64,000 nt of DNA from Patescibacteria group bacterium (GTDB taxonomy: Bacteria; Patescibacteriota; Patescibacteriia; Magasanikbacterales; GWA2-37-8). The notes beneath the pieces were generated by a model, which worked only from the letters and a program-made list of their open reading frames with translations, searched no databases and had not been told where the DNA came from. Below, piece by piece: positions 34,246 to 64,000 of the stretch (position 1 is its first letter; the number at the start of each line of letters is the position of its first letter). The translations under genes and the position numbers were made by a program. The stretch is from contig SCQK01000007.1 in the NCBI GenBank assembly GCA_004321885.1, forward strand, positions 32,001 to 96,000, given 5' to 3'.

Positions 34246-34365
34246 CTCAATGAGATGGAATTGAACGTTTGAGAACAGTGCTTGGAATGCGCGTTTATGC
34301 GCTCTTTCCTGCACTTTCAGCGTCACTGATTGAATAGAGACTGGGACTTCGAACCCACGAGGTGA

Positions 34366-40875: not shown

Positions 40876-42747
40876 TCACTGATTTTCTTTTTCAAATTCT
40901 TTTTTGGCCGCTTCAATGTCCAGCAACTGCTGGGGATTGGTGGTCACAATCTGGTCTTCGGTGTAGGAGGCCACCACTTTAATGGCCGCGTGCTTGTTGC
41001 CGGCGAAAAAAATCCCCTCACCCACAGCGCTTTCCAAAAGCAGATATTTTTCGCCCTCGGTTAAAATAAACACTTTTTGCACCAAATCAATGGCCGCCGG
41101 CGACTGACGCAACAAAAGTTGCAGGGCCGAGTTCGTCACAATCGCCTGACCGTATTGCGAGCGCAAAAAATCATTCACATCCTGCGTGATGGTGGTAACG
41201 CCCAAAAAATATTTGCGGCAGCGCTTGACCAGGGCGAAAATAAAGCGAGCGCTGTCCTCGTGCTGCATCAGCCACCAGGCCTCGTCTATGGCCAGAATCC
41301 TTTTCTTGCGCTCCGAACGCACAACGTTCCAAATATAGTTGACGATGGCGTAAATGGCCAGGGGGCGCAACTCGTCTTCCAAATCGCGCACCGAAAAAAC
41401 CACCAGCTGATTTTTCACGTCCACGTTGGTGGGCGAATTAAACAGACCGCTAAACGTGCCCTCGGTAAATTTTTTCAATTTCAAGACCAGCTCGTTTGAC
41501 CCTTCCATGCCCTCCAAAATTTCCTCCAAATCCTGCATAATGGGCGGCGTCACCTTGGTCAAATCCGCGTCCGGCGTGATATCTTTTTTGGCGTAAGTTT
41601 CTATGAGCGCGCGGTCAATGATGGAATCCTGCTCGGTGGTAAGCCCGCCCAGCATGATGCGCAACAGCCCCTTCACGGTAATGACCGCCCCGCGGATAAT
41701 ATCATCCACGGAAATTTCCTGACCCACGGGCCGCGGCAAATCAAAGGGGTTCACCTTGCTTTCCGAAGATAAAGAAATATTTATATAGGTGCCGCCCACG
41801 GCATCGCACAAATGCTTGTATTCCATTTCCGGGTCAATCACGATAATGTCCGTGCCCATCATCATGGTGCGCAAAATTTCCAGCTTGATGGCATAACTCT
41901 TGCCGGCGCCGGAAGTGGCGAACACCACCATATTGGCGTTTTGCAAAGAAAAGCGGTCAAACAAAATCAGGCTATTGTTGTGTCGGTTGATGCCGTACAA
42001 GATACCGTCATCCGAGGTGAGCTCGGCGGAAATAAACGGAAAACTGGCCGCGATGGGGCTGGAGTTCATGTTGAAAGCGACCGCGATTTCATCGTTGCAT
42101 AAGGGCAGGGTGGAATTAAAACCCTGCTCGGACTGATAAAAAACCTTGCGCGAATAAATGAGCTTGCCGCCAAAAACATTTTCAATGTCTTCGCAGGTCT
42201 GGTCCAGCTCTTCTTTGGTTTTGGCGTAAACCGTAACATAAAACGCAAACTGAAAAAAATGCTCGGTGCCCTGGGTGAGATTGTCGCGCAGTTCTTCTAT
42301 GTCGCGCAGGGCGGTTTCGCGAATCGGGTCGCGCGGCGCGCCTTTTTCCGCGTCGGCGTTTATCTGCGCTTCCAGGGCGCCGACTTTATTGCGCAACTGC
42401 TTCAAAATTATAGCTGACTTGACCGGATAAAAAAACATGCCGATGTCCATGGTCACGGACATATTAAGAATGGGCGAACTCCAGCCCACCGAAATATAGC
42501 GCGGATAGGTGATGACAAAAATGGTGCGGCAAAAAATATCGCCCAGCTTCACGAAGCCGGTCTCCACGTTGAAAGCCGAGGGCGCGATGATGTCCTTAAT
42601 GGAAACCGTGCCCTCGCGATAAGCCCGCTCTTCGGCCAAAATCATGGTCTCGGCCGCGGCTTTCTTTTTTACCGCCTCTTCTTCTTTGCGCAGGCGGCTC
42701 TCGTCGGGCTGGCCGGTTGGTTTTACGATTTTTGGTGCAAAAGCCAT
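40876..42747 (-). CDS. virB4: VirB4/TrbE-family type IV secretion ATPase.
   Basis: Walker A VVFATSGAGKSY, with DUF87-like architecture. Confidence 0.75.
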   Translation of the reverse strand: MAFAPKIVKPTGQPDESRLRKEEEAVKKKAAAETMILAEERAYREGTVSIKDIIAPSAFNVETGFVKLGDIFCRTIFVITYPRYISVGWSSPILNMSVTMDIGMFFYPVKSAIILKQLRNKVGALEAQINADAEKGAPRDPIRETALRDIEELRDNLTQGTEHFFQFAFYVTVYAKTKEELDQTCEDIENVFGGKLIYSRKVFYQSEQGFNSTLPLCNDEIAVAFNMNSSPIAASFPFISAELTSDDGILYGINRHNNSLILFDRFSLQNANMVVFATSGAGKSYAIKLEILRTMMMGTDIIVIDPEMEYKHLCDAVGGTYINISLSSESKVNPFDLPRPVGQEISVDDIIRGAVITVKGLLRIMLGGLTTEQDSIIDRALIETYAKKDITPDADLTKVTPPIMQDLEEILEGMEGSNELVLKLKKFTEGTFSGLFNSPTNVDVKNQLVVFSVRDLEDELRPLAIYAIVNYIWNVVRSERKKRILAIDEAWWLMQHEDSARFIFALVKRCRKYFLGVTTITQDVNDFLRSQYGQAIVTNSALQLLLRQSPAAIDLVQKVFILTEGEKYLLLESAVGEGIFFAGNKHAAIKVVASYTEDQIVTTNPQQLLDIEAAKKEFEKENQ

Positions 42748-42752
42748 AGGTA

Positions 42753-43433
42753 TTATTCTACCTGCATCTGATTCGCCGGCGCCAGGTATTGGCTAAACGC
42801 CACGTCCGGATTATACGTTGAATAAAATAATTCTATCAGGGATTGCGTGTCCAGGCGCGCCACTTCCAGGTTCATTGAAGCCAAACCCCCTTCCACCTGG
42901 CGCACGCGCGCGTCTAAATCTTTTTTTCTCTGCAAAAACCGGTCTTCTTTGAGAGTGATGATAGTAGCCGGATTAATCGTCTCCATCGCGCGCGGCCAAA
43001 AGCCGCGTTTTTTGTTAGAAAGCGGGTCGTAGGGCACAATCACGAAAAACTGTTTGCTCATGATTTTGCCGAGCGACACCAGCTCGGTGATAAACGAGCG
43101 GTAATCGGCCGTCTGCGCGCGTAAAAGCTCGTTGCTTTGCTCGCGCTCTTTGGTTAGTAATTTTTCCAGATAGGGCTTGATATATAACTGACGCGATTGC
43201 ACCACCACCTGCAGGGGAAAATCCAGGGAGTTCAAAAAAGAAACATACGACGACACCAGCGCGTTTTGCTCTTCCTCGCTTTTGAGCGCGAAATTAACGC
43301 TGGAAACCATCAGCAGGGCGCGCAGGGTGCCGTCTTTCATGACAACAGTGTCTGATTTGATTTCAGAAAAAGGCAGATGATTCTGCGCGGACGGAATAGC
43401 TCTTTTTTTGGCCAGCGTTTTTTTATTTTGCAT
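42753..43433 (-). CDS. Hypothetical protein immediately upstream of VirB4 (possibly a split VirB4 N-terminal domain or a T4SS accessory protein).
   Basis: A 226 aa ORF tightly coupled to virB4. Confidence 0.4.
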   Translation of the reverse strand: MQNKKTLAKKRAIPSAQNHLPFSEIKSDTVVMKDGTLRALLMVSSVNFALKSEEEQNALVSSYVSFLNSLDFPLQVVVQSRQLYIKPYLEKLLTKEREQSNELLRAQTADYRSFITELVSLGKIMSKQFFVIVPYDPLSNKKRGFWPRAMETINPATIITLKEDRFLQRKKDLDARVRQVEGGLASMNLEVARLDTQSLIELFYSTYNPDVAFSQYLAPANQMQVE

Positions 43434-46723: not shown

Positions 46724-47218
46724 TTACGGGGTGCTTTTTTTATACTCAACTTTATTCCTCAAATCACTAACAAAACTAATTTTGCCGCCGGCCACTTTCC
46801 GCAATAAGTACGAGCAACTGGACGGCGCGGGCGCGATCAAGTGGCAAAACTTATTTTGTTTTCGCAAATAGTCAACTAAACAATGAAAATCACCATCGCC
46901 GCTGACAATTACGGCCTGATCATAATTCTGATATTCTATCATCGTGTGTAAAACCAATTCGGCGTCACAATTCCCTTTTACTTCACCGTCTTTCAATATT
47001 AGAGTTGGTTTAAATATCAAAATGTAACCAACCTCCTGAAGAAATTTATACAACTCCTCATTGCCAAATAAAAAACCAATGAACATAAACGCCTTCGCGA
47101 CGCTATATTTGTCTTTCAAATACCTGCGAAAACGAAAATAATCCAGCTTCCAACCAATGCGCTGCATACTGAAATATAGATTCTGACTGTCTATAAACGC
47201 GAAATTGTTTTCTTTCAT
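46724..47218 (-). CDS. NYN-domain (PIN-like, LabA-type) protein.
   Basis: AFIDSQNLY, DAELVLHTM and VIVSGDGDFHCLV motifs. Confidence 0.65.
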   Translation of the reverse strand: MKENNFAFIDSQNLYFSMQRIGWKLDYFRFRRYLKDKYSVAKAFMFIGFLFGNEELYKFLQEVGYILIFKPTLILKDGEVKGNCDAELVLHTMIEYQNYDQAVIVSGDGDFHCLVDYLRKQNKFCHLIAPAPSSCSYLLRKVAGGKISFVSDLRNKVEYKKSTP

Positions 47219-47236
47219 ACTTCGTTTCCCTCCCCG

Positions 47237-47348
47237 CCCCACTGTCATTCTGAGCGGAGCGAGGAATCCCTTACACTACGTTAACAGTTTCTATATCCCC
47301 TTTTTTCAAATGCAACACTATCGCCAGCGCCTCGCGCAGCCAAGAGGC
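47237..47348. repeat. 112 bp direct repeat (copy 2), overlapping the authentic 3' end of the gene 47271-48254.
   Basis: See copy 1. Confidence 0.75.
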
Positions 47349-51649: not shown

Positions 51650-51650
51650 A

Positions 51651-54600
51651 TTATGTTAATTTTTTCAATTGTTCGCTGTCCAATCCTCTAATTAGCTTGA
51701 ATAGCTCCTGAATGTTCTTGATTCCCTGATCCCTTAGCCCCTGATCGTTTTGGGCGTTATTACGGTGCTGAAGTTCAATTTTACTGGACTCCGTCACATT
51801 AAATTCTTTAATATGCCTGACCGCCTCGGCCCCAAGATTATATTTTTGCAAGAAACCTTTAATGGCGGCGGCTTGTTCGTTATTAAGCAACGTAGCGCTG
51901 GCCCGCATTGTTTTGCGCACGCTTTCAATTACTTGTTGCGCTTCTCCACCAAAAGTAGTAGCGACTTCCTGCGCCAGCATATTCATTGTGGCGTCATCAA
52001 TCCAACTTTGTTCAAATAAGCCTTTCAAAATTGTCTGGGCCACCATTTTATCTTCCCAGGTCTGCTTGCCTTTCCCTTTAAGTGTAACATGGTTCATATG
52101 CCCGCGATGCGCCTGGAGCAACTGGTCGTAATTCATGTCCTTGAAATTCTTGAAAAATCCTTCCACCACGGCTTCTTCGGCGGCGGTGTTTGGCACATCA
52201 ATGCCCATATTGCCCCAAATATTCGCTTGCCCGGCCTTAGAAATCATGTCCTGGCGCGTGCCGCGATACAAAGTGTATTGATGATCGCGCAAGGCCAGCT
52301 GATGAGCCGCGTAAAGAGCGGGGTTGGCCGCGCCAGCTTTTCCCCAAACCGCGCTTAATTGTCCGCGCGACTGGGTGAGCGATCCCGACAAAGACTTGCC
52401 GATTTCTTCGACATTAGCCGCCGATCCGGCTTGCCGGAGCTGGCCCAATATTTGCTGTAATACATTGATTTCGGTTTTGGCTAAAAAATTTTCATCCATT
52501 TGCTGTTTGCCAAAAAGGACCTTAAAATTATTTTCAAGAGCGGTACCTTTCGTTGAACTAAGAAATGCTTGCGCGGCTGTTGCGTCAATTTTGCCGCCGA
52601 CTTTAATTTTTTCCATTGCCTTTGTCAGAGTTTCCAAACTCGCGGCCAATTCCTGTATTTTTTGTTGATTGGCGCCGCCGCTAAAAATACCGGCCGCGCT
52701 TTCCATCCCCTTCAATTTATTTTCATCAGCTTCTATTTCAGATTCTAAATTTCCAATCTCGTCAGCCAGCCTAACCCCTCTTTCAGTTTCATCGTCCGTC
52801 GGATTCGCTTTATTATTCAATACACCATACTCTCTTTTCATTTCTTCTAATGCACTCTTTTTAGAATCCAGACCAGTTCTCATTCCTTCAGCTTTTTCCC
52901 CGGCCGCCAACGCGGAAGCCACGCCCTGCAAAGATTGAATTCGCGTTTCGATGGGAGCCGATTCCGCTTCCAGCTTTCCCTTCCCTTTTTCATTTAACGC
53001 GCTTTGCGCGGCCAAAAGATTCTTCTCCTCTTCCGAACTTAATCCTTCTTGTTCAGACTTACTGCGCGCCAAGGCGCTAACATATTGTTCGCCCTGACTG
53101 GTATTTATCAGCCCGCCCCTAACGCTCGCTTCAATAAATTTAATCAGCTCCTCGGCAATTTGCCCGCCCAGTTCGCCCATTTTTTTAGCTTCCACTGTGT
53201 GCCGAAATCTTTGGAAAAACGCCGCCCTATTTCTCTTCGCTCCCATTTCTTCCAACCCGATTTCCGCCTCGGCCCGCGCTTTATGCGCCTGAATTTGTTC
53301 GCTGACTGTTCCCAAACCATATTTGTCTTTTTCACCAATTTGGAATTCGCCGTTCTTAAATCGCGCATTGCCTTTCACCGCGCGGCGGCCGTATGCCTTG
53401 TATTCGGTGGTTTTTTCTTCCGAACGCGCTTGTTCTGCCTCAAGCATGCCCTTTTCTATGCGATCCAACGCGTTAATGGACGGCCCTTCAAAGGCCTGAA
53501 ATAAATATTTTGGATCGGCGCTGATTCTTTTGTCCATCAATTCTTCGCGCACCTTGGCGAACTCCTGCACTCTCTTCAATTGTTTCCGGCTGCGCAAAAG
53601 CTTTTCGTGCCTCCCATGGAAGAAACGCTGAAACGGACCGCGACCCTCGTCAACGACCTGCTCTGTGTACCATTCATCCCCCTCTCGCACAAGCTTCGCG
53701 CCTTTTTTAATATCGGCCGCGGCCGCTTTTTTCGCCTCCTCTTCTGTCGCCACGGCTACTCCGCTTTTGTCGGTAATAAGATTTTTTTTCTTCTTAAAAT
53801 CATACTTCATCTGCGTTATCGCCTTACCATTCTCATCATATAATTTTCCGCTCTCATCGGCTGTTACACGAGCATTTTGTTCATCTTCGGTCAAAGCGTC
53901 TTTAGAATCTACTATTTTATTATTCTCGTCACGCTTAACTTTATGCCATGCTTTGCTTTTTTCGTCATATTCCATCTTATAACCCATCAATTCTTCATTT
54001 CTGGACAACCTGGATTTAATGTTCAATTCTTCCTCCTTCGTTTCCAACCGCGGCCCGCCGGCACGCCAGGCTCGCCAGCCCTCCACAATTGACCTTTGCA
54101 AATCGCCTTTGATTCTTTCAACTCTATTAGCCAATAAACCCTGATACAATCCTTTTCCTGTTAATTTTGCCAAACCAATCCCCGCTTTCTTAGCCCCCTC
54201 AACCCCCTTTTTCGCCGCCCAGCGCGCCGCGGTGTACCCGCTCGCCACCGCCGCCACCTTCTTGCCGAAGTCCGTCACTTTGCCCATCATGGCCCCGCCG
54301 GTTACGCCCAGCGCCTGGGTCACTTTCGCCCCAATCAAAAGCATGCCAATGGCAATGGCGAAGTTGGCCATGGCCGGCCATGTCATTGCCGCCGTAATTC
54401 CGGCGCTCTGGCCGCCAACTTTAATGTTTGACGCGCCCGCTGATTCAATGCCCTCATCGGTAATTTGAACCGGAACCGAATTATTGCTGGGGTCAGCTAT
54501 CTCTTTGCTTACTGTCCCGGACCCCACCACGGCAAAAGACAACCAAAGAAAAAACGCCAAAATCGGCCCGACAATCACGTGATTGCCAAACTCGGTCCAC

Positions 54601-55415
54601 CACTGGCTGGCGTATTTTTGCGTTTGCGGTATGACATTCAAAACAAAAGCCAAAGGGGATAAAATGATAAGCACCCAAAGCACAATCATACGCGCCAAAA
54701 GAATCACCAGATAAACACCCATGGTCACCATAGCCATCCCCGCAAAAGCGACTGCGGCAACCGAAGCCATAAATATGCCGGACATCTTGTAATTCTCCGG
54801 TTGCGTGCCGCCGGCAAATCTTTGTATATCATTAAAATTGAAGGCGTTTATAAGATTGCCGCCGGCCGTGGCCGCCACGCCATTGATAAAAGTTATCATC
54901 ACCACCTGGGCCAGGTCTATAATCAACCCGGCAATGGTGCGGCTGAAATTTACAAGTATCGCGGCAAACAATAATTTCACCAGTAATTTTTTGTATTCAT
55001 ATTGCTCTATGCCCAAAATTGTGCCAAAGGCGATAACGAGCAGGATAATTACAAAAAACATGTTGGTAACATCGCGCACCAACACCCACCCAGTAGTTAC
55101 CGCCGTTGAATCTATAAATCCATTGTATCCCCCAATTTGAATGGTAAAACGCAGAATGAAAATTGTAATCTTCATGAACAACGCCGCCATCCACATGGTA
55201 AAAGTAGTGCCGGCGCTCATTATGGCATCAAAAAATCCATCAGCCTGCGCCACTTCGGCGCCCATCACCCACATCAACAAAACAGTCGTGGCCACCATCA
55301 CAAACGAAACCATGCCCAACTTCCTGCTGGGTTTCAAAAATCGCAAAACAGCGCTCGCGGCCGCGCGCGCTTTTACGCAAACTTTACTCGCCTTTTTCCA
55401 AAGGGAGACAAGCAT
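51651..55415 (-). CDS. Giant VirB6/TrbL-like polytopic membrane protein with a long C-terminal coiled-coil domain (1254 aa).
   Basis: The N-terminal region of about 450 aa has more than 8 TM helices, followed by about 800 aa that are heptad-rich. Confidence 0.55.
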   Translation of the reverse strand: MLVSLWKKASKVCVKARAAASAVLRFLKPSRKLGMVSFVMVATTVLLMWVMGAEVAQADGFFDAIMSAGTTFTMWMAALFMKITIFILRFTIQIGGYNGFIDSTAVTTGWVLVRDVTNMFFVIILLVIAFGTILGIEQYEYKKLLVKLLFAAILVNFSRTIAGLIIDLAQVVMITFINGVAATAGGNLINAFNFNDIQRFAGGTQPENYKMSGIFMASVAAVAFAGMAMVTMGVYLVILLARMIVLWVLIILSPLAFVLNVIPQTQKYASQWWTEFGNHVIVGPILAFFLWLSFAVVGSGTVSKEIADPSNNSVPVQITDEGIESAGASNIKVGGQSAGITAAMTWPAMANFAIAIGMLLIGAKVTQALGVTGGAMMGKVTDFGKKVAAVASGYTAARWAAKKGVEGAKKAGIGLAKLTGKGLYQGLLANRVERIKGDLQRSIVEGWRAWRAGGPRLETKEEELNIKSRLSRNEELMGYKMEYDEKSKAWHKVKRDENNKIVDSKDALTEDEQNARVTADESGKLYDENGKAITQMKYDFKKKKNLITDKSGVAVATEEEAKKAAAADIKKGAKLVREGDEWYTEQVVDEGRGPFQRFFHGRHEKLLRSRKQLKRVQEFAKVREELMDKRISADPKYLFQAFEGPSINALDRIEKGMLEAEQARSEEKTTEYKAYGRRAVKGNARFKNGEFQIGEKDKYGLGTVSEQIQAHKARAEAEIGLEEMGAKRNRAAFFQRFRHTVEAKKMGELGGQIAEELIKFIEASVRGGLINTSQGEQYVSALARSKSEQEGLSSEEEKNLLAAQSALNEKGKGKLEAESAPIETRIQSLQGVASALAAGEKAEGMRTGLDSKKSALEEMKREYGVLNNKANPTDDETERGVRLADEIGNLESEIEADENKLKGMESAAGIFSGGANQQKIQELAASLETLTKAMEKIKVGGKIDATAAQAFLSSTKGTALENNFKVLFGKQQMDENFLAKTEINVLQQILGQLRQAGSAANVEEIGKSLSGSLTQSRGQLSAVWGKAGAANPALYAAHQLALRDHQYTLYRGTRQDMISKAGQANIWGNMGIDVPNTAAEEAVVEGFFKNFKDMNYDQLLQAHRGHMNHVTLKGKGKQTWEDKMVAQTILKGLFEQSWIDDATMNMLAQEVATTFGGEAQQVIESVRKTMRASATLLNNEQAAAIKGFLQKYNLGAEAVRHIKEFNVTESSKIELQHRNNAQNDQGLRDQGIKNIQELFKLIRGLDSEQLKKLT

Positions 55416-55428
55416 TCCAGTGTGATTA

Positions 55429-55791
55429 TTATGCGACTATATTATACCACAAAAAAAGCTCCGTAACAACGAAGCTGGGGATAAAAATACACGGGAAGCA
55501 GCCCGAGAGCTGAATGGGAGACGAGCCGTCGTTCCAGTCAATCTTTACATCTCGTATGGGCATCTGGTTCATGTCGGCATAAGCGTAAAATTTGAGGGTA
55601 ACGCGGGAGGGAGAGACGGGTATTGTTACGTCAGCGCTGGTTTTGTCGTTGATGGTGAGGCCTTCGGCGCCCTCAAAACAGATGCCGTTCCGGCAATTTA
55701 CCGCATCCAAGCTGTATACATTGTTTAATTTGGCAAACAAATAATTCAAATCGTTAAACAACCCTTTTTCCACCTGGCACTGGCTTTGCAC
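55429..55791 (-). pseudogene. Internally deleted fragment of the Cys-rich secreted paralog family.
   Basis: ..EKGLFNDLNYLFAKLNNVYSLD[deletion]AVNCRNGICFEGAEGLTINDKTSADV.IPVSPSRVTLKFYAYADMNQMPIRDVKIDWNDGSSPIQLSG is nearly identical to a segment of 58457-59842 but lacks both ends. Confidence 0.6.
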
Positions 55792-55885
55792 GCAGAGGTT
55801 GTTTCTACAAATACCGGTGATGATGTCACGATCGGATTTGCTTTTTTGAAAAAATAATGTATAGTATAATTACTGTTAAAATTTT

Positions 55886-56284
55886 ATGACTGATTTAGCC
55901 AGGCAACTGGAATTTTGGCTTTCGTCGGCCTCAAAAAATTGGCAGACCGCACTTTCTCTGTATAAATTAGGCCATTATGACATGTGCTTATTTTGCTGTC
56001 ATTTGACTTTAGAGAAAAAACTTAAAGCTATTATTGTCTACCTATTGAAAAAAGTACCACCGCCGATTCACGATTTAAATCGTTTAGCGCAAATCGCGGG
56101 GTTAAATGTTTCTCTCACACAACAAGAACAGCTTAATGAAATAACGAAATTTAATATCCAAGCCCGTTACGATGATATAAAATTGGCTTTTTACAAAAAA
56201 GCTACCAAATTATTCGCAAAAAAATATTTGGAAATAACACAAGAATTAATTTTATGGCTGGAAAAAAAATCGGGCGAGAAGTAA
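55886..56284 (+). CDS. HEPN-domain protein, the toxin-like partner of a HEPN/MNT pair.
   Basis: A 132 aa ORF. It overlaps the downstream nucleotidyltransferase gene. HEPN-like helical content with ..ARYDD.. near the C-terminus. Confidence 0.55.
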   Translation: MTDLARQLEFWLSSASKNWQTALSLYKLGHYDMCLFCCHLTLEKKLKAIIVYLLKKVPPPIHDLNRLAQIAGLNVSLTQQEQLNEITKFNIQARYDDIKLAFYKKATKLFAKKYLEITQELILWLEKKSGEK

Positions 56285-56592
56285 TGGAAAAAGTCGGTAA
56301 ATTAAAAAAATCTATTGAAGCGGACGGCATAAAAGTGCACAGTATATTTGTGTATGGCTCGTATGCGAAAGGGAATGCGCACAAATGGAGCGACATAGAT
56401 GTTTGTGTCGTTTCAAAAAATTTTGGGACAAAAATTAAAGAGCCGCAGAATTATTTATGGTCTAAGCGCGTAGTTTTACACGATTATTCTTTAGAACCGA
56501 TTGGATTTAGCTATAAAGATTTTAGATTTAGTAATTCACCTTTAATTAGCGAGGTACGTCGTACTGGCGTAAATATCGGCGATAAGGTATGA
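56254..56592 (+). CDS. Minimal nucleotidyltransferase (MNT) domain protein. The start may be at 56284.
   Basis: VYGSYAKG..SDIDV NTase motif. Confidence 0.6.
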   Translation: MAGKKIGREVMEKVGKLKKSIEADGIKVHSIFVYGSYAKGNAHKWSDIDVCVVSKNFGTKIKEPQNYLWSKRVVLHDYSLEPIGFSYKDFRFSNSPLISEVRRTGVNIGDKV

Positions 56593-56752
56593 ATCAACAA
56601 TTCTTGCGCCAGGTAATGATTGGCAGGGGCGACGGCTCGACACCGGTTCAACTTGACGGCTGCTTCCTCAATCATCTGTGGAAATTTATCCACCGAAATT
56701 ATGTATAGGCTAAGATACTCCCAAAATTCACAACCTCGTCAGACTTTTATTT

Positions 56753-56950
56753 TTGACGGAACTCCACATACCGCAGTATATCAAGTGTCAAATTGAGGAT
56801 TTAAATCCGCATTATCTTATACCTCGTTATCCTGATTTGGAATTCAAACCAAAATTTAGTTTTACCCACAACGAAAAGAACGCGAAAAAAATAATTAATT
56901 CCGCCGAAAAAATTGTAGTATGTCTAAAAAGCAAGTTAGAAAGATACTAA
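56753..56950 (+). pseudogene. C-terminal fragment of a second HEPN gene (N-terminus missing).
   Basis: Only 65 aa, with ..YLIPRYPD.. HEPN-like C-terminal motif, immediately upstream of a second MNT gene. Confidence 0.4.
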
Positions 56951-57249
56951 CAAAATTTGAAAATGAATTATCCAAAAAAATCAAAGTGGATAATATTTTT
57001 ATTTTTGGCAGCGCTGCCAGAGGCGAAATGACCAGAGACAGTGACTTGGATTTAATTGTCATTTCCAACAATTTCGACAAAATGGACTTCATGAAACGGT
57101 TGCAATTATTGTCGCGGGCCAGCGCGTGCTGCGCCGACAAGATTGCGATGGACGTGGTTGGATACACAATCAAAGAATTTAGGGACATGGACAAAGTTGA
57201 ATCGTTATCCTTAAAGAGAATCATGCGCGAAGGATATTTTGTGCGATGA
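56920..57249 (+). CDS. Minimal nucleotidyltransferase (MNT) domain protein, second copy.
   Basis: IFGSAARGEMTRDSDLDLIV. Confidence 0.6.
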   Translation: MSKKQVRKILTKFENELSKKIKVDNIFIFGSAARGEMTRDSDLDLIVISNNFDKMDFMKRLQLLSRASACCADKIAMDVVGYTIKEFRDMDKVESLSLKRIMREGYFVR

Positions 57250-57327
57250 GATAAGTTGTGAAACTCATTAAAAAACTTATCCACTCTTTTTTCTTGACAC
57301 CGCTTGGCTAAAAATGCGACAATACCC

Positions 57328-57356
57328 TTGACAAAAGGGTGTTTTTGTGTTATGTT
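57328..57356 (+). promoter_or_regulatory. Sigma70-like promoter (TTGACA, 17 bp spacer, TATGTT) within the left inverted-repeat arm.
   Basis: ttgacaaaagggtgtttttgtgttatgtt. A mirrored copy lies on the minus strand near 60560-60595. Confidence 0.45.
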
Positions 57357-57432
57357 GTATGGTTCTTTCACAAAGTGCTAAGTAGGCCAGTATATGGCCT
57401 GGTTAGCCACAAAAGAAGGTTTGGGTAAAGAG

Positions 57433-57572
57433 TGTCATTGCGAGAAGGGAGCGTAAGCGACCGACGCCTGTCCGCCTCTGGCGGAAAGCAATCCCAGTCA
57501 ATTACGAAAGGCCTGCCTGTCGGCAGGCAGGGATTGCCGCGTCGCTCACTGCGTTCGCTCCTCGCAATGACA
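57433..57572. repeat. MITE-like element of about 140 bp with imperfect terminal inverted repeats of about 30 bp (TGTCATTGCGAG...CTCGCAATGACA), in the 5' leader of a lipoprotein gene.
   Basis: tgtcattgcgagaagggagcgtaagcgac ... gtcgctcactgcgttcgctcctcgcaatgaca. A second copy lies at 60357-60496. Confidence 0.7.
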
Positions 57573-57613
57573 AACAACGTTTTTCCCCGCTTCGGCGGGG
57601 AAGGAGAAAGTCC

Positions 57614-58009
57614 ATGCTGAAGAAATTGATCGCCACCCTCCTCTGCGTCGCGTTCGCGATGCTCGCCGCGTCCTGCGGCGATGATGGCAAGACCCCGCCC
57701 CCGTCCGACGCGCGGGTCTCGCCCGAACTCCGCGCGGACGGTTGTCCGCCCGGACGAAAAAGGGACAACGTGTCCGGCGAGTGCGTGCTCGCCGACGGGC
57801 TTGTGCCAGACACGAAGAAACCCACGCCGGATACGGGTGTGTGCCCCACACTGCCGAAGGAGGAGGTTGCGTGCAAATTGGGCAAAACCACTGTCGTCAG
57901 TTGCACACTGACAAAGTGGAAACCTGGTGGCTGTGTCGACGTGTGGTGCGCGTGCAACACCGACCCTGGTTGTAACGGGTGGTGGCGCCGCGCTGACTGC
58001 GGCCTCTAA
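57614..58009 (+). CDS. Small Cys-rich lipoprotein (variant A), high-GC.
   Basis: MLKKLIATLLCVAFAMLAASCGDD with a lipobox. 13 Cys in the mature part. Confidence 0.6.
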   Translation: MLKKLIATLLCVAFAMLAASCGDDGKTPPPSDARVSPELRADGCPPGRKRDNVSGECVLADGLVPDTKKPTPDTGVCPTLPKEEVACKLGKTTVVSCTLTKWKPGGCVDVWCACNTDPGCNGWWRRADCGL

Positions 58010-58089
58010 CCTTCAAAAACTGCACTGAGCAAGACGTTCGGTGCAGTAAAAATTGTATTCTTTAAAAGAAGAACCTAAAAAGAAGAAAC

Positions 58090-58455
58090 TTACAAGACGA
58101 ACTTTAAAAGATTTTTTAATTCTTTTTCCTCTTCTATAAACTTTTTTTTCATCCTGCGAGCGGCGGCATAGCTGATTTGAAAGTCATTTTTTAATTGACG
58201 GGCGGTGTAATTTGAATCGCTTAAATAATTTTCAAACGCGGATAACCATTTTACCAAAGGTATTCTTGTCTTGTGGAATACTACCTCGGAGATGTCGGAA
58301 AATCTCCTTAAACAATTTTGACAAGTGTATTTTTTTATTTTCCTTTTATCTCTAATGGTGTAAACTCTCTTTGAGAAACAATCAGGACAAACCAGACCGC
58401 GAGGCCAATTCATTCTGCGCAGTGCCTGAAGGATTTGCGTTTCAGAATATATCAT
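58090..58455 (-). pseudogene. N-terminal fragment of an IS1595-family transposase (zinc-ribbon plus HTH only; DDE domain absent).
   Basis: CPDCFSKRVY....YTCQNCLRRFS zinc ribbon followed by PLVKWLSAFENYLSDSNYTARQLKNDFQISYAAARRM, typical of the IS1595 N-terminal region. It is only 121 aa. Confidence 0.5.
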
Positions 58456-58456
58456 A

Positions 58457-59842
58457 TCATTTCGGAGCTACAATGATGGATTTGGGAGAGGAGCCGCCGA
58501 AGGGGGTCCAGGCACCACTATCTAAAGGAAAACATTCATCATCGTAAGTATTCCCGGTGATTTGTCTTCTATCATAACACCCCGTCTTCCCCGGGCTATT
58601 CGCGTCACCGCACACCCCATTACACCACCCCCAATTATCCTTGACCTGTACCTTGGGGGTGTATTTGCAACAGCCTTCTTTGAAAGCGAGGTCGGACGGG
58701 CATTGAGAAGCCGGAACAAAGTTGGCGCTGTCTTTGACGCACTGATAGGAATAGTCGGCGCGGAAGTACGCGTTGTCGCAGGTTTTGTCCACAATCTGGC
58801 CGAAGTTGGGGGCGATGTTTTCCGGCAGGCATTGGTCTATGTTTTTGCAGTCATTCACTGACTGGCACTCTTTGTTTGTTGGTTTCTCAGTACCATACAC
58901 TTCTTTGTGCGTCACGGTATTATAAGAAGCTGTTTTTATATAGCAATATTTCTTGGCGTTAAATTCCCCGCCAACGGATTGGAAATCGCATTTCGTGCCT
59001 GTGGTTTTGCCTCGGTGATTGCGGAAGTAGCCCGAGAGCTGAATGGGAGACGAACCATCGCCCCAGTCAATTTTTACATCTCGTATGGGCATCTGGTTCA
59101 TGTCGGCATAAGCGTAAAATTTGAGGGTAACGCGGGAGGGAGAGACCGGTATTTTCACGTCATCACTGGTTTTGTCGTTGATGGTGAGGCCTTCGGTGCC
59201 CTCAAAACAAATGCCATTCCGGCAATTTACCGCTAAAATTTTCGGAGCCAAAGCCGCAGAAGATTGCTCGGTCGCATTGAAAAGATTATTTTGCGAAGAA
59301 ACGCGCGCCTGATAAACTCCAGCCTCATCCAAGCTGTATACATTGTTTAATTTGGCAAACAAATAATTCAAATCGTTAAACATCCCTTTTTCTATCTGGC
59401 TGTCCGAAAGCTGGCTTAGCAGCGGAGGCGCCGGCCTGGAAAAATCAAGCGTGCCGTCCACGGCGCCGCTCGCGGTCTTGTTCGTCTGCCCGCCTGGATT
59501 GATATTTTTGGAACTGTAAGGCGCGCCGGTCACAGTTTGGCTGGTGTTTTGCTGGCGAGGGCCGTACAGTAATTTAATATCTTCCTTATCCGTTAAAGGA
59601 GGATTAGTGATATTTAGACTGCCAAACGGAGACATCAGGGTTTTGAAAATATAGTCGGCCAATTTATCCACACCTGTCGGCGAGGTATGCAAATTAACAG
59701 TAAAATTTCCGCCTTCCCAAATTCTGTTTGTTTTGGCCGTATTGGCCCTGTAAGCCGCGTCCGCGATTTGCATAAATTTTCTTAAAGTAGTATTGCGTAT
59801 TCTCTTGAAAAGAGAAGGGATTCTCTGCTCAAGGGAACGCAC
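58457..59842 (-). CDS. Cys-rich secreted protein, a member of a paralogous family that also includes 60699-64000 and the fragment 55429-55791.
   Basis: It shares a C-terminal stretch of about 60 identical residues (NIAPNFGQIVDKTCDNAYFRADYSYQCVKDSANFVPASQCPSDLAFKEGCCKYTPKVQVKDNWGWCNG) with the large paralog. Confidence 0.6.
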   Translation of the reverse strand: MRSLEQRIPSLFKRIRNTTLRKFMQIADAAYRANTAKTNRIWEGGNFTVNLHTSPTGVDKLADYIFKTLMSPFGSLNITNPPLTDKEDIKLLYGPRQQNTSQTVTGAPYSSKNINPGGQTNKTASGAVDGTLDFSRPAPPLLSQLSDSQIEKGMFNDLNYLFAKLNNVYSLDEAGVYQARVSSQNNLFNATEQSSAALAPKILAVNCRNGICFEGTEGLTINDKTSDDVKIPVSPSRVTLKFYAYADMNQMPIRDVKIDWGDGSSPIQLSGYFRNHRGKTTGTKCDFQSVGGEFNAKKYCYIKTASYNTVTHKEVYGTEKPTNKECQSVNDCKNIDQCLPENIAPNFGQIVDKTCDNAYFRADYSYQCVKDSANFVPASQCPSDLAFKEGCCKYTPKVQVKDNWGWCNGVCGDANSPGKTGCYDRRQITGNTYDDECFPLDSGAWTPFGGSSPKSIIVAPK

Positions 59843-59893
59843 CGCGAGGCGATGCGTGAGAAGGTTAGGATGGGTGGGCGAGGTGGGGCGACG

Positions 59894-60316
59894 TCACTGC
59901 TTGGTGCAGGTGACATACTTGTCAGCTGTTTGACAAGATGTCGACTGTGCCGAAGCACAGGGAGCAACCGCCCCCCCCCCGTTCGTACAAGGGAAACGAC
60001 AGCCAGAGCCGTCTTTGTTCTCTGTCCCATCTGGAGAACATTGACGGATTTCTGATCCGGTGCACACCCACGTACCACCTTTCGGGCACTTCCCAGACGT
60101 GGTGTCCGGCGTGGGCGTTCCCTTGTCGCACTTCCCCTGCGCCGAGACGACGCAGGTAGGAAACGAGTCGCCGACGAGCCCGTCGGCGCGGAGAGTGTCC
60201 GCAATGCGCGCGTCGGACGGGGGGGCGGAGCCGGTGTCATCGCCGCAGGACGCGGCGAGCGTCGCGAACGCGACGAGCGTCGCGCAAAGGAGGATAGCGT
60301 TCAATTTCTTCAGCAT
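59894..60316 (-). CDS. Small Cys-rich lipoprotein (variant B), high-GC.
   Basis: MLKKLNAILLCATLVAFATLAASCGDD. The leader and 5' UTR mirror variant A, while the mature region is divergent. Confidence 0.6.
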   Translation of the reverse strand: MLKKLNAILLCATLVAFATLAASCGDDTGSAPPSDARIADTLRADGLVGDSFPTCVVSAQGKCDKGTPTPDTTSGKCPKGGTWVCTGSEIRQCSPDGTENKDGSGCRFPCTNGGGAVAPCASAQSTSCQTADKYVTCTKQ

Positions 60317-60356
60317 GTTCCTTCTCCTTCCCCACCGAAGCGGGGGTTTCGTTGTT

Positions 60357-60496
60357 TGTCATTGCGAGGAGCGAACGTAGTGAGCGACGCGGCAATCCCT
60401 GCCTGTCGACAGGCAGGCTTTTCGTAATTGACTTGGATTGCTTTCCGCCAGAGGCGGACAGGCGTCGGTCGCTTACGCTCCCTTCTCGCAATGACA
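60357..60496. repeat. Second copy of the MITE-like element of about 140 bp, in inverted orientation.
   Basis: tgtcattgcgaggagcgaacgtagtgagcgac ... ctcccttctcgcaatgaca. Confidence 0.7.
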
Positions 60497-60698
60497 CCCA
60501 TTACCCAAACCTTCTTTTTGTGGCTAACCAGGCCATATACTGGCCTACTTAGCACTTTGTGAAAGAACCACACCTTATACCACAAAACTGGGGTTTTGTC
60601 AACCTCGCCAAGAGGCCCCGCCTCCGGCAGGGTCAAGGGTATTGTCGCATGGCGGAGTGAACTCGTCAAGAAAAGATGTGATAAGTGACGATGTTTTT

Positions 60699-63600
60699 TT
60701 ATTTGGGAGCCACGATGATGGATTTGGAGAAAGAAGTAAATGCACCAGTATCATCTGTACACTCATCTTTTCCTCCATTCCAAAAACCCTGATAACACCC
60801 CCCGTCCTTCCCACCCGGACAACTCCCGTTACACCACCCCCAGTTATCCTTGACCTGCACCTTGGGGGTGTATTTGCAACAACCTTCTTTGAAAGCGAGG
60901 TCGGACGGGCATTGAGAAGCCGGGACAAAGTTAGCACTGTCTTTGACGCACTGGTAGGAATAATCAGCTCGGAAGTAGGCGTTGTCGCAGGTTTTGTCCA
61001 CAATCTGGCCAAAGTTGGGGGCGATGTTTTCCGGCAGGCATTGGTCGATGTTTTTGCAGTCGGTATCAGAACCGACTGTCTGGCAGGTTTTCGTCATGGG
61101 CCTCCTTATCTCGTGTTTATCTTCCGGCTGCACATAGGCGTCGGTTACAATGGTGCAGCGATTTTCTTTCACATCCTGATTAAGCGGATTGGGTACACTC
61201 TCACATTTGCCATCCACCTTCCCTCGGTGATTGCGGAAGTATCCATCAAGGACAACCGGCGCCGAGCCATCGTTCCAGTCTATCTTTACATTCCTGATGG
61301 GCATTTGGTTCATATCGGCATAGCCGTAAAATTTGAGGGTAACGCGGGAGGGAGAGACCGGTATTTTTACGTCAGCGCTGGTTTTGTCGTTGAGGGTGAT
61401 GCCGGCTGGCCCTTCGGTGCAAATGCCGCCCTGACAGTTGACAGACAGGACTTTGGGGGCTTTGAGAAAATTACTTAATGTCTCGGTGCGGTTAATTCCT
61501 TTGACTTCGTATGCATCTGAATTATATCGCTTATATATACCGAGATTATCTAGAGCAAATAAATTGTTGACTTTGGCGAATAGACTGTCAAGACGCGACA
61601 CGGAATTTATGCCTGCCGGCAAACCCGCGGGGGCTGGTTTGGTGAAATCAAGAGTGCCGTCCGGATTGCCACTAATTGTTCTGTTGACATAGCCGCCCGC
61701 ACCTGTGCTGCTTTTCGCGCCATACGGAGCGCCCACAATGCTCTGGATGGCATTCTGCTGGCGCGGGCCATAAAGTAACCGCAGGTCTTCTTTTTCCAAA
61801 GAAGGAGGATTGTTGATGTTGAGAGAGCCAAATGGTTCGGTGAGAGTTTTGAAGATGTAATCCGAGCCAGAGCCGGAAAAAGAGACGGAATATTTGCTTC
61901 CCTCCCAAATCCGGTTGGTCCAGGCCGTGCTCTGCCTGTCGGCAACATCGGCGATTTGGTCGCAGTATTCTCTTAATCGCGCCGTCACTTTTATATTTAT
62001 TGGAAAATAAGATTGGCCCGACTGCTCCTCATTTGGCCACCAGCCAGGACCGCCGCCGGCCAAACATTTTGCCACACCGACTTTAATCAGCTTTTTGTCT
62101 TTGTCAAACACCAAAACCACTTCCAAAGATTGCTGTCTGTCTTCTTTGCCGTTATCGCACAAATCGCCGGCGTCTTTGGCGGTCACCTGCATAACACTGT
62201 CTTTCAAACTATCTCCGTATTCGGGAAAAAATCCGGACTGGTCTTTAATGTAGTCGCGTTGCAGAACCCCGGCTCCCGCGTCCCGGTTATCGGAGAAAAA
62301 TCTCATTATGGTGTAATCGTTAAATTGTTTGATGCGCGTTTCCGCCAGCGGCGGCCGCGTGTTGATGGGTTTCTCAAATATTAAAGAATGTTCTTTTTCC
62401 GTATCACACAGTTCGGTTGAGTTGTAAGCGTCTCCTTTCAGCGAACCATCCGCGTTTTCTTCCGCCACCACGCATCCTGATTTGCCCGCCTGGTCAATGT
62501 AATTTTTTCCGTACAATGTTCTGACCCGTTTCGTAATATCGCTCTTGGCGCCATTACGGATAATATATGTGCCGCGCACCACATTATTGTCACCGCCGAT
62601 ATTTATGAACATGTCGGCCTCAATTTCCACCTGGTCTATATCATACAAATGAATGTCGTAATCAGCCACTTGTGAAAAAGTAACTCTGTTAAATAGACTG
62701 CCATATTTCCAAGACGCGGGATTGGGGTCTTTATGGCCGGGAAAATTAAACTCCTGCGGGTCATCTGCTTTGGCGAACGGCGTATAACCGACCATTTTTG
62801 ATGAAACAGAACCTGGTTTGATTATCGTCTCTGCCTTCAATGAATAAACAATGCCCTGGGGCACGAGTGTTCTGCTAAACGGAGACGGCATCAATGGCAA
62901 AAGAGACACGCCATAGCATTCTGACGGGTCGCAAAAATAATGTGCGTCATCGCTATTTGTAAAATATTGACGCGGCTGTTGGTCGCTGCCGGGGACTTGA
63001 TTATAGAGCGACTCTCCGATTTTTGGATTCACAGTGCTATTGATTGTAAGGTCGTTGGAATAAAAGGCGACTATTTGGCCTACTACACTTTTATAAATAG
63101 TGGCGCATCTTTGAATCTTTTCCTTGCTACAAAACCTTCCAAAAAAAGTCGGATAAGCGCTGTAATCGCCCCTATTCCCCGCTTCTCTGGCGCAATAATA
63201 CCGTCCATAGGCCGCGGGCTTGTAGCCGGCTTCGTCAAACTGGTTGTCCACGTCCAATGCCCCATTCAAGGTCTGCACCGGCAGCCAGGACAGGCACTGA
63301 AAGTTGGTCTGCTCGGAATTTATCGGGCGAGACATATCTTTTTCCAGACAAAAACCACGCCAGCCGATGAAGCGGTTTTCTTTTTTCTTGATTTCGCAAG
63401 TGCCGGATGTCTGGCCCGCGCAATCATCGTCAGTCGCGCAGGGCTTGGTGTCATAAGAGCCGCCCAGACAATAGCCCTGGGGCACGGCATTACCTTTGTT
63501 CGGATTGGTGTAGCCCCAGTATTTTACAGTGCTGTCTCCGTAATTTACCTTCGTGTAATCGCATTCGCAGGCAGAAGCGGTTTTGGTGTCCGTGGTTTCA

Positions 63601-64000
63601 ATAGCGCCGCTCTCATTGCACTTGTTGGCATTGACAAAGGCCTGGGATTTTACCAGATTGGCGGTGTTGGGATAGGGCGATTCTTTTTCCGGATAGGCGC
63701 GGCAGGTGTGGTTGGGCGCCTGGTCCATGATATTGCTGTCCGGGCCAGACGGGCTTTGCATACAGAGGTTGTTTTTGCAAATGCCGGCGCTGTTTTTGCC
63801 GCAGGGTTTGTTGTTGGCGCCCTGGGCGCAATTATAATCATTTGGCTTGGCCGGGTCTTTGCAGTTTAGCCCGCCGCAAGGAATCATTTTCACCAAACGC
63901 CAGTCCGGATTTTTGCTGTCGCCTAAATTGCGCTGGTCCAATTCTTCGGGCGGATACAAGCCCAGCAAACTAAAACCAGAATAGTCCAGTCCCTTCCACG
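60699..64000 (-). CDS. Large Cys-rich secreted protein of the same paralog family. The N-terminus lies beyond the window edge, so the CDS is partial.
   Basis: More than 1089 aa with no upstream stop before position 64000. The C-terminal domain is near-identical to 58457-59842. Confidence 0.6.
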   Translation of the reverse strand, partial: WKGLDYSGFSLLGLYPPEELDQRNLGDSKNPDWRLVKMIPCGGLNCKDPAKPNDYNCAQGANNKPCGKNSAGICKNNLCMQSPSGPDSNIMDQAPNHTCRAYPEKESPYPNTANLVKSQAFVNANKCNESGAIETTDTKTASACECDYTKVNYGDSTVKYWGYTNPNKGNAVPQGYCLGGSYDTKPCATDDDCAGQTSGTCEIKKKENRFIGWRGFCLEKDMSRPINSEQTNFQCLSWLPVQTLNGALDVDNQFDEAGYKPAAYGRYYCAREAGNRGDYSAYPTFFGRFCSKEKIQRCATIYKSVVGQIVAFYSNDLTINSTVNPKIGESLYNQVPGSDQQPRQYFTNSDDAHYFCDPSECYGVSLLPLMPSPFSRTLVPQGIVYSLKAETIIKPGSVSSKMVGYTPFAKADDPQEFNFPGHKDPNPASWKYGSLFNRVTFSQVADYDIHLYDIDQVEIEADMFINIGGDNNVVRGTYIIRNGAKSDITKRVRTLYGKNYIDQAGKSGCVVAEENADGSLKGDAYNSTELCDTEKEHSLIFEKPINTRPPLAETRIKQFNDYTIMRFFSDNRDAGAGVLQRDYIKDQSGFFPEYGDSLKDSVMQVTAKDAGDLCDNGKEDRQQSLEVVLVFDKDKKLIKVGVAKCLAGGGPGWWPNEEQSGQSYFPINIKVTARLREYCDQIADVADRQSTAWTNRIWEGSKYSVSFSGSGSDYIFKTLTEPFGSLNINNPPSLEKEDLRLLYGPRQQNAIQSIVGAPYGAKSSTGAGGYVNRTISGNPDGTLDFTKPAPAGLPAGINSVSRLDSLFAKVNNLFALDNLGIYKRYNSDAYEVKGINRTETLSNFLKAPKVLSVNCQGGICTEGPAGITLNDKTSADVKIPVSPSRVTLKFYGYADMNQMPIRNVKIDWNDGSAPVVLDGYFRNHRGKVDGKCESVPNPLNQDVKENRCTIVTDAYVQPEDKHEIRRPMTKTCQTVGSDTDCKNIDQCLPENIAPNFGQIVDKTCDNAYFRADYSYQCVKDSANFVPASQCPSDLAFKEGCCKYTPKVQVKDNWGWCNGSCPGGKDGGCYQGFWNGGKDECTDDTGAFTSFSKSIIVAPK

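Follow-up and report, generated by a model that had tools for sequence, protein, structure and literature searches.

We analyzed a 64,000-nucleotide (nt) stretch of DNA from a Patescibacteria group bacterium, an uncultured and ultrasmall organism (NCBI assembly GCA_004321885.1, contig SCQK01000007.1, positions 32,001 to 96,000 of the forward strand). This whole stretch is called the window below, and positions are those of the window. Its right-hand end carries the 3′ part of a giant gene for a secreted, cysteine-rich protein (gene C), together with partial copies of that part, namely, copy B, fragment A, and remnant D. Lipoprotein genes, toxin-antitoxin modules, a transposase fragment, and palindromic elements are found among the copies. 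This part of the window is a hotspot of rearrangement, located at the 3′ end of a giant gene that heads a locus resembling a T4SS (type IV secretion system). The gene, its copies, and the near-identical tract shared by two of them are as follows.

Gene C: 60699..64000 (continuing beyond the window end), minus strand; the 3′ 1,099 codons (3′ 40%) of the giant gene
Copy B: 58457..59842, minus strand; 5′-truncated paralogue of the last ~420 codons of gene C, with an open 461-codon frame
Fragment A: 55494..55845, minus strand; in-frame, multiply deleted remnant, B-like overall with a C-like patch
Remnant D: 56589..56675, plus strand; inverted piece of the module that the copies share, MNQQFLRQVMIGRGDGSTPVQLDGCFLNH, flanked by the first MNT gene and a truncated HEPN gene
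Tract, copy in C: 60825..61061, minus strand; encodes DCKNIDQC...KDNWGWCNG, the second half of the putative PKD-like C-terminal domain
Tract, copy in B: 58616..58852, minus strand; 94.1% identical to the tract copy in C

Partial copies of the giant gene

The repeats were found by listing open reading frames (ORFs) and by repeat finding and were then compared by pairwise BLAST in gene orientation. A preliminary description of the window had proposed a paralogous family with a conserved module, and the repeats are indeed far beyond chance (B versus C, E = 4e-104). The frame of gene C is open up to base 63998, and its start lies ~4.85 kb past the window end. The window translation matches residues 1618 to 2716 of a 2,716-amino-acid protein at 100% identity (P0006, which is TAN33550.1, locus tag EPN28_01925), so gene C is intact. 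This protein contains 102 Cys residues (3.8%), 6.1% Asn, and 9.0% Gly, and a check of the complete N terminus, as proposed earlier, revealed a classical Sec signal peptide, MKKISATILAVILLATTLAGSFLFPRTAQA. The expectation of large, Cys-rich secreted proteins is thus borne out for gene C and does not extend to copy B, in which a sequence scan found no signal peptide and no hydrophobic segment.

Nor are B and C two intact genes, as had been supposed, because B is a truncated copy that aligns solely to gene C residues ~2292 to 2716, with homology starting around B residue 21 to 30. NCBI annotates B from an ATG at 59773 as a protein of 438 amino acids (TAN33549.1, EPN28_01920) on the same 214.5-kb contig as gene C, and no obvious Shine-Dalgarno sequence was seen upstream of either candidate start. 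Copy B nevertheless retains every family-invariant residue, including all cysteines. In a relative-rate test with 19 outgroup genomes, the changes unique to B and those unique to C were similar in number, and at positions conserved in at least 80% of these outgroups, B deviates once and C twice. Copy B therefore reads as a sequence of functional quality that is not decaying. A copy of this quality would either be in use, whether as a protein or as a donor whose sequence is copied into C from time to time, or have been the working 3′ end of a functional allele until recently.

Fragment A and remnant D, on the other hand, are clearly decayed. The short ORF of fragment A spans 55429 to 55791, with homology reaching 55845. 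Two alignments relate it to copy B (55494 to 55704 versus 59023 to 59233, 93.4% over 211 nt; 55701 to 55778 versus 59323 to 59400, 94.9% over 78 nt), and its similarity to gene C is 90% over 141 nt. Three pieces are joined in frame, resembling C residues ~1689 to 1699, B residues ~148 to 172, and B residues ~204 to 273. The upstream piece reads GICRNNLCVQS, compared to GICKNNLCMQS in C, and 55779 to 55845 corresponds approximately to 63749 to 63815. Relative to B, fragment A has a 93-nt in-frame deletion, at whose junction the two alignments overlap by 4 nt, and it lacks everything beyond “...LSGCF.” Over 95 codons, A and B differ by 8 synonymous and 8 nonsynonymous codon differences. Fragment A had previously been described as decayed through a single internal deletion; the decay is confirmed, and the deletion turns out to be accompanied by a joined C-like piece and a missing end. 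Remnant D was recovered by a tblastn search of the full C protein against the window (58.6% amino acid identity over 29 residues to C 2513 to 2541, E = 7.6e-4) and also appeared as an inverted repeat in the repeat search. It was absent from the preliminary description, as were the lipoprotein-containing tandem unit, the inverted repeat bracketing B, and the link to the T4SS.

Mosaic divergence of copy B and gene C

Copy B and gene C share three blocks, and the offset between B and C is 2,209 to 2,212 nt (~2.2 kb). The tract aligns without gaps over 237 nt at 94.1% identity (E = 4e-104), or over 247 nt at 93.1% when gaps are allowed. The preliminary description had reported ~250 bp at ~95% (58620 to 58870 versus 60830 to 61080); a near-identical tract does exist, and its boundaries are shifted from those positions by ~5 to 20 nt. 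The second block, the module, matches over 185 nt at 83 to 84% (59007 to 59191 versus 61219 to 61403) and reads ...LNDKTS.DVKIPVSPSRVTLKFY.YADMNQMPIR.VKIDW.DGS.... The third block comprises 27 nt ending at the stop codon (89%).

All 14 differences in the tract are synonymous (0 of ~191 nonsynonymous sites), leaving the 79 encoded residues identical. By type, these differences are C>T 6, T>C 4, A>C 1, A>G 1, G>C 1, and C>A 1. By the Nei-Gojobori method, synonymous divergence (dS) in the tract is ~0.39 (proportion of differing synonymous sites [pS], 0.31) and nonsynonymous divergence (dN) is 0. The remainder of the two genes is diverged, as had been noted before, with a dN of 0.3 to 0.7 in the flanks and saturated synonymous sites (pS, 0.8 to 0.9). 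As a control, codons were compared only at alignment columns where B and C share the residue, a comparison that is insensitive to alignment and to amino acid constraint. At such columns, codons differ in 14/77 cases (18%) in the tract, 12/42 (29%) in the module, and 73/137 (53%) in the rest (tract versus rest, Fisher p = 3e-7). Uniform divergence, which had been named as the pattern that would speak against conversion, was thus not found. The heterogeneous synonymous divergence points to a mosaic history, as expected of gene conversion or recombination.

The earlier proposal of gene conversion is supported by this mosaic pattern, and its claim of recency is not: with 14 substitutions in the tract and ~0.3 to 0.4 synonymous substitutions per site since the exchange, the exchange is not recent. 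Approximately 81% of tract sites are nonsynonymous, so that arithmetic from the site counts gives a neutral chance of ~1e-10 for 14/14 synonymous differences. Many tract positions are variable among orthologues, and family-wide constraint alone is therefore insufficient to account for 79/79 identity. The differences imply either very strong purifying selection on both copies since the exchange or versions that diverged inside functional alleles. It is to one of these, rather than to recency, that the identity of the tract proteins appears to be due.

A further small exchange is suggested by three-way comparison of A, B, and C over 211 nt, in which A and B agree against C at 40 sites, A and C agree against B at 8 clustered sites, and B and C agree against A at 5. 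The patch shared by A and C includes a derived DWNDG in place of the DWGDG found in B and in the family consensus, and it is best read as a second small exchange between copies. The layout of the 3′ end, in which the tract (the conserved core) is followed by a short, disulfide-rich, highly variable tail and then by the conserved terminus ...IIVAPK, would make patchy exchange between copies easy.

The duplicated unit, the protein family, and the secretion locus

The DNA surrounding copy B contains two lipoprotein genes, an inverted repeat, and several mobile elements or their remains.

L2: 59894..60316, minus strand; ORF for a small Cys-rich lipoprotein between C and B, lipobox LAAS|C, with L2-like neighbors in other loci
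L1: 57614..58009, plus strand; paralogue of L2, convergent with B
Inverted repeat, left arm: 57343..57714, plus strand; promoter-like site, palindromic element resembling a miniature inverted-repeat transposable element (MITE), and the first ~100 nt of L1
Inverted repeat, right arm: 60207..60587, minus strand; MITE-like element (60358 to 60495) and the 5′ end of L2
MITE-like palindromic element: 57434 to 57571 and 60358 to 60495 (138 nt each) and 13765 to 13834 (~70 nt); the long copies lie in the 5′ leaders of L1 and L2
Transposase zinc-ribbon fragment of the IS1595 type, stand-alone: 58090..58455, minus strand; 121 amino acids, directly downstream of B (PF12760, E = 6.8e-10)
Two HEPN/MNT-type toxin-antitoxin modules: 55886..57249, plus strand; between A and B, with Pfam matches
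Genes of these modules: HEPN, 55886 to 56284; nucleotidyltransferase (NTase), 56254 to 56592; truncated HEPN, 56753 to 56950; NTase, 56920 to 57249; all plus strand

L2 is not annotated by NCBI and was called by the gene caller of an independent assembly. It shares one reading frame with B, from which it is separated by one TGA and 17 sense codons (59843 to 60316 region), so that read-through of the TGA would yield a fusion of a lipoprotein signal to B. The convergent orientation of L1 is the usual one for the lipoprotein gene relative to the giant gene in other genomes. L1 and L2 have in common a promoter-like region, the 138-nt palindromic element, and their first ~100 nt. The right arm of the inverted repeat (60587 to 60207) matches the left arm over 384 nt at 88.5% identity, rising to 96% in a 169-nt core, and the repeat brackets B; a promoter scan placed a promoter-like site at the left arm (57328 to 57356). 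The product of 58090 to 58455 is named an IS1595 family transposase by NCBI.

The terminal inverted repeats of the MITE-like element, GTCATTGCGAG(G/A)AG...CT(C/T)CTCGCAATGAC, have 8 matches, compared to 1.25 expected from shuffles, and an Rfam scan of 50000 to 64000 returned nothing meaningful, the 138-nt element matching no family. The second HEPN gene is reduced to its C-terminal half (profile positions 70 to 115 of 117) and adjoins remnant D, which suggests that the HEPN/MNT insertions and the rearrangements of the giant-gene copies are linked. Two unitigs from an independent assembly of SRR8426592 (Logan) are 100% identical to window positions 60464 to 59353 and 58648 to 57465, and both break inside repeats. 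The L2/B junction and the junctions among B, the transposase fragment, and L1 are therefore not artifacts of assembling the metagenome-assembled genome from which the window comes.

Loci with relatives of the family were fetched from genomes (41 loci) and metagenomes (80 loci) and searched against themselves. Extra copies of the giant gene were found in only one of the genome loci (L004) and in the metagenome loci L054, L071, L080, and L083. All of them lie on the strand of the giant gene, downstream of it, and cover its 3′ end. In each case, the giant gene and the extra copy are separated by a small Cys/Asp-rich lipoprotein gene; a crude filter finds a gene of this kind, usually in convergent orientation, immediately downstream of the giant gene in 34/61 loci. 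L080 contains a clean tandem duplication of ~1.74 kb comprising the 3′ tip (73%) and the lipoprotein gene (98.5%), and L071 is similar. These two loci indicate that partial copies originate when the 3′ tip and the small lipoprotein gene are duplicated in tandem as a unit, and the offset between B and C in the window fits such a unit, made up of 1.39 kb of 3′ coding sequence and the lipoprotein region.

The conserved-variable-conserved layout also recurs. In the window, L071, and L080, the conserved block ends in ...CCxFxPKVQVKDNWGWCNG (94%, 92%, and 79% nucleotide identity, respectively) and is followed by a tail of ~100 nt without nucleotide similarity and then by a terminal 27 to 53 nt (...IIVAPK*) at 77 to 89%. 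In L071, the 28 block residues are the same in both copies although 7 nucleotides differ, and the L004 pair has a dN/dS of 0.11/0.52, its first 37 codons being nearly identical. The copies in L071 and L004 begin abruptly inside the homology, without a start codon, and that in L083 carries stop codons.

Other repeats were observed downstream of the giant gene. The lipoprotein gene is tandemly duplicated in L113 (10434 to 11863), L117 (5931 to 7348), and L080 (5783 to 8260), and no extra giant-gene tip was detected beside the duplicated gene in L113 and L117. In L111 (11611 to 12748), direct and inverted repeats of ~85 to 100 nt (80 to 97% identical) are densely packed downstream of the giant and lipoprotein genes.

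The family itself was explored with a profile of the C-terminal 266 residues of gene C, which was searched against 1.84 billion representative proteins. This yielded 918 relatives (representative clusters at 50% identity); in the long ones, of 2,500 to 3,200 amino acids, the shared domain is always at the extreme C terminus. No Pfam family matched A, B, or the in-window part of gene C at E ≤ 0.01. With the full-length protein at E ≤ 1, the sole Pfam match was a subthreshold CBM_4_9 (residues 982 to 1067), and NCBIfam gave no match on the 2,716 residues. No description of the family was found in the literature on giant or Cys-rich proteins of CPR (candidate phyla radiation) bacteria. The last residues, (K/G)x(I/V)I(V/L)(A/S)P(K/P/Q/E/R/N), are conserved in distant genomes directly after the hypervariable tail (window 60702 to 60727 and 58460 to 58485). 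This conserved terminus is not LPXTG-like and may be a docking or sorting motif.

An AlphaFold2 model of the last 266 residues of C, built from a 12-sequence alignment, was mostly beta and of only moderate confidence (mean predicted local distance difference test [pLDDT], 65; predicted template modeling score [pTM], 0.53). A Foldseek search of the model against the PDB returned nothing significant, and a sequence search against the PDB found no relative. Landmarks resembling those of PKD domains (IDWGDGS, Y.Y.C, and V.V.DNWG) can be read by eye in the shared region. Together with the model, they lend modest support to a PKD-like sandwich that carries two Cys-rich insertions as well as a variable Cys-framework tail.

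Interruptions of the giant gene were seen in two other loci. In L001 (2290 to 3540), P0004 stops in frame after “...DWGDGS,” and homology runs on in frame to 3540. In L044 (3726 to 11446), the gene is split into overlapping ORFs of 2,100 and 481 amino acids; the latter (P0155) was considered as a further orphan copy and rejected because it is the 3′ piece of this split gene. Both interruptions may be sequencing errors or real disruptions in the same C-terminal region.

The giant gene is accompanied by genes of a secretion system. Those identified in the window are the following.

g1254: 51651..55415, minus strand; conserved 1,254-amino-acid protein, hydrophobic in its N-terminal region and encoded next in the T4SS-like locus
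TrsD/TraC-like protein: 42753 to 43433, minus strand; TrsD/VirB4 N-terminal models (NCBIfam), match below cutoff
VirB4-like ATPase: 40876 to 42747, minus strand; PF19044, E = 3e-28

The VirB4/TrsD-TraC region (40876..43433), which holds the two signature genes of the locus, matches the Pfam families PF19044, PF12846, and PF01935 and is 66 to 85% identical to other loci. More than 20 loci share one gene order: the giant gene is followed a few hundred bases later by a g1254 homologue and then by g397a, a TrsD/TraC-like gene, and a VirB4 gene. PrgI and NYN genes are also present in syntenic loci, with Pfam matches to PrgI and TraC-like proteins in L001 and L044; within the window itself, no PrgI gene was identified. 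The named genomes all belong to the Patescibacteria (Magasanikbacteria, Falkowbacteria, Parcubacteria, Nomurabacteria, and Kerfeldbacteria), and some third-party annotation (TPA) bins are labeled otherwise. As judged by gene content and order, the locus corresponds to the MPF_FATA-like T4SS of Patescibacteria (PMC12102498), of which the gene for the giant secreted protein is the conserved first gene in several lineages. In the window, fragment A occupies the ancestral slot next to g1254 where the giant gene sits in more than 20 other genomes, and intact gene C is now found 5.3 kb farther upstream. A promoter-like site for g1254 (55469 to 55441) falls inside the tail of fragment A.

Additional genes were noted in and near this cluster. 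A fusion ORF of an EamA transporter and a riboflavin kinase (45094 to 46425) and an NYN-domain gene (46724 to 47248) lie within it, and an NYN gene is present at the equivalent place in L001. A tRNA-Ser gene (34154 to 34246) and a large serine recombinase with Resolvase and Recombinase domains (36164 to 37672) are located a few kilobases from the VirB4 end and could mark the border of an integrated element.

Origin of the copies and comparison with known systems

The explanation that we consider probable is a tandem duplication of the 3′ end of the giant gene together with a lipoprotein unit, followed by rearrangement and by patchy conversion and very strong purifying selection on the PKD-like core. 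Copy B would have arisen when the 3′ end of the gene and the lipoprotein gene were duplicated in tandem. Insertions (the toxin-antitoxin modules, the insertion sequence [IS] fragment, and the MITE-like elements), a local inversion, and deletions would then have reshaped the region, reducing the original copy next to the T4SS genes to fragment A and leaving another piece as remnant D. Short patches would also have passed between the copies through gene conversion or homologous recombination, namely, the 237-nt tract, the module, and the smaller DWNDG patch of A and C. After homogenization of the tract, ~0.3 to 0.4 synonymous substitutions per site ago, no amino acid change would have been tolerated in either copy. 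Several points weigh against this account. The direction, number, and timing of the conversion events are beyond reconstruction from one genome, and the best homologues of gene C are only ~42% identical, so that the order of duplication, L2 inversion, and A deletion is inferred and unpolarized. The low dS of the tract could in principle result partly from selection on RNA or codon choice, not from a younger age. L2 is inverted relative to the simple tandem expectation, for which at least one extra rearrangement is needed. Finally, extra copies are rare (~6 of ~115 loci) and not general in the family.

The same arrangement can be read as a silent-cassette (orphan tip) system, in which B and the orphans elsewhere are donors that swap the variable tail of the giant protein via the conserved block and terminus. 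An expressed gene followed by partial copies that lie downstream on the same strand and lack a promoter and signal is what such a system would look like, as is the conserved-variable-conserved architecture in the window, L071, and L080. Nearly all differences between the orphan blocks and the main copy are synonymous (window, L071, and L004), B is of functional quality, each copy is paired with a lipoprotein gene, and the arrangement recurs. However, no recombinant or variant was observed, an extra copy (usually one) in ~5% of loci makes a poor “archive,” and A, D, and the L083 copy are plainly decaying. Moreover, the pattern would be explained equally well by displaced 3′ ends of formerly functional alleles in which decay has not had time to set in. 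Cassettes for tail variation are possible but unproven, and we regard such a system, in which the swap might include the cognate lipoprotein and would alter the binding specificity of a host-attachment protein, as unlikely. B might instead be an independently expressed short paralogue (438 to 461 amino acids), perhaps exported as an L2-B fusion by TGA read-through. Its open ORF, a dN of 0 in the tract, and the lack of relaxed constraint would suit a short protein, and L2, which is in frame and co-directional with B and C, would supply the lipoprotein signal peptide. Against this stand the absence of any visible secretion signal, hydrophobic segment, or ribosome-binding site, the 1-in-3 chance of an in-frame arrangement, and the position of the domain at the end of 2,500- to 3,200-amino-acid proteins in ~918 family clusters, as well as the equivalent copies in L071 and L004 that start within the homology. 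TGA is also an ordinary stop here, ending 14/35 genes, including those for SMC, AdoHcy hydrolase, and VirB4; an alternative code with TGA as a sense codon fusing L2 to B was rejected on this ground. We consider an independent short protein quite improbable.

Very improbable, in our estimation, are an artifact of strain misassembly, a diversity-generating retroelement (DGR), and a shufflon acting on the 384-nt inverted repeat. Misassembly would be a concern in any metagenome-assembled genome, but the independent unitigs match the junctions at 100% and the flanks of the repeats are deeply diverged, not variable at the strain level, and this candidate was rejected on the unitig evidence. The two near-identical 3′-end repeats of ~240 nt superficially resemble the template/variable pair of a DGR. 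Their mismatches are not adenine specific and are all synonymous, for which reason a DGR was rejected; no reverse transcriptase turned up among the scanned ORFs in a window scan that was not exhaustive. As for a shufflon or invertible switch altering C, the inverted repeat does bracket B, but B and C are co-directional, so that B cannot be joined to C by inversion between the arms. There is also no adjacent invertase gene, the one recombinase that was found being ~20 kb away, and this candidate was likewise rejected.

That a surface-protein gene is partially duplicated and undergoes patchy conversion is familiar and unsurprising by itself. Of greater interest than the tract is a large, uncharacterized secreted family tied to the Patescibacteria T4SS, in which the tip and the lipoprotein gene are repeatedly co-duplicated. 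It is in the C-terminal PKD-like domain, the variable tail, and the neighboring lipoprotein that evolution follows its most unusual course: no amino acid change is tolerated in the core, the tail is hypervariable, and the tip is repeatedly duplicated along with the lipoprotein gene. This part is accordingly a target for host-attachment experiments. The giant protein might be the missing host-contact (adhesin or fiber) component of the Patescibacteria T4SS, with the disulfide-rich C-terminal tail and the cognate lipoprotein as a swappable specificity module whose tandem cassettes recombine via the “KVQVKDNWGWCNG” block and the conserved terminus. This proposal seems to us rather unlikely; if it were true, the episymbiont could change the surface that it recognizes or its docking partner.

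The phenomenon is of a known kind: surface-protein genes with orphan 3′ copies and patchy conversion. In the polymorphic toxin loci rhs and cdiA of enterobacteria, orphan (displaced) C-terminal modules lie downstream of the full-length genes. Gene C resembles these in being followed by same-strand, 5′-truncated copies with a conserved stretch before a divergent C terminus (window, L004, L071, and L080), in the small downstream gene that accompanies each copy, and in a conserved stretch that can be a recombination substrate. In contrast to Rhs and CdiA, the giant protein has no Rhs/YD or hemagglutinin repeats or recognizable toxin domain in Pfam and NCBIfam, and no VENN or PxxxxDPxGL-type demarcation motif is visible in it. 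Its variable part is a Cys-framework tail of ~40 to 50 residues followed by a conserved terminus, and the C terminus of the family is conserved, unlike that of polymorphic toxins. The companion genes (L2 with C, L1 with B, and two in L080) encode exported lipoproteins of no known family and are usually convergent, which differs from the typical cytoplasmic immunity gene.

Silent-cassette gene conversion of surface proteins is exemplified by pilE/pilS in Neisseria and by the MgPa repeats of Mycoplasma genitalium. The window resembles such systems in its combination of an expressed gene with partial copies that, as read from sequence alone, lack a promoter, start, and signal (B and the L071 and L004 orphans), in the mosaic of short conversion tracts (synonymous heterogeneity and the patchy A/B/C sites), and in the conserved segments that flank a variable one. 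It differs in having one to three partial copies rather than an archive, several of them decaying, and in that the copies come from simple tandem duplication that includes the neighboring gene. The tract mismatches, as described above, set the locus apart from DGRs. The landmarks ...IDWGDGS..., ...Y.Y.C..., and ...V.V.DNWG... are shared with the PKD domains of secreted bacterial and archaeal proteins, whereas the region has no Pfam PKD match and two long Cys-rich insertions break the sandwich.

The closest comparison for the locus as a whole is the MPF_FATA-like T4SS of Patescibacteria, for which no adhesin resembling PrgB was detected (Quinonero-Coronel et al., PMC12102498 / 10.1101/2025.01.22.634366) and which is essential in a cultivated Saccharibacterium (PMC11665869). 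No adhesin has been recognized for this system (PMC12102498, PMC11665869), and the giant family, which has no sequence similarity to PrgB, heads its locus. The window and the homologous loci share with that system a VirB4, a TrsD/TraC-like protein, PrgI (in the homologous loci), and a large membrane protein in conserved order, as well as a chromosomal setting. They differ from it in that, in genomes of the Magasanikbacteria, Falkowbacteria, and Parcubacteria types, the first gene is conserved and encodes a giant secreted, Cys-rich protein.

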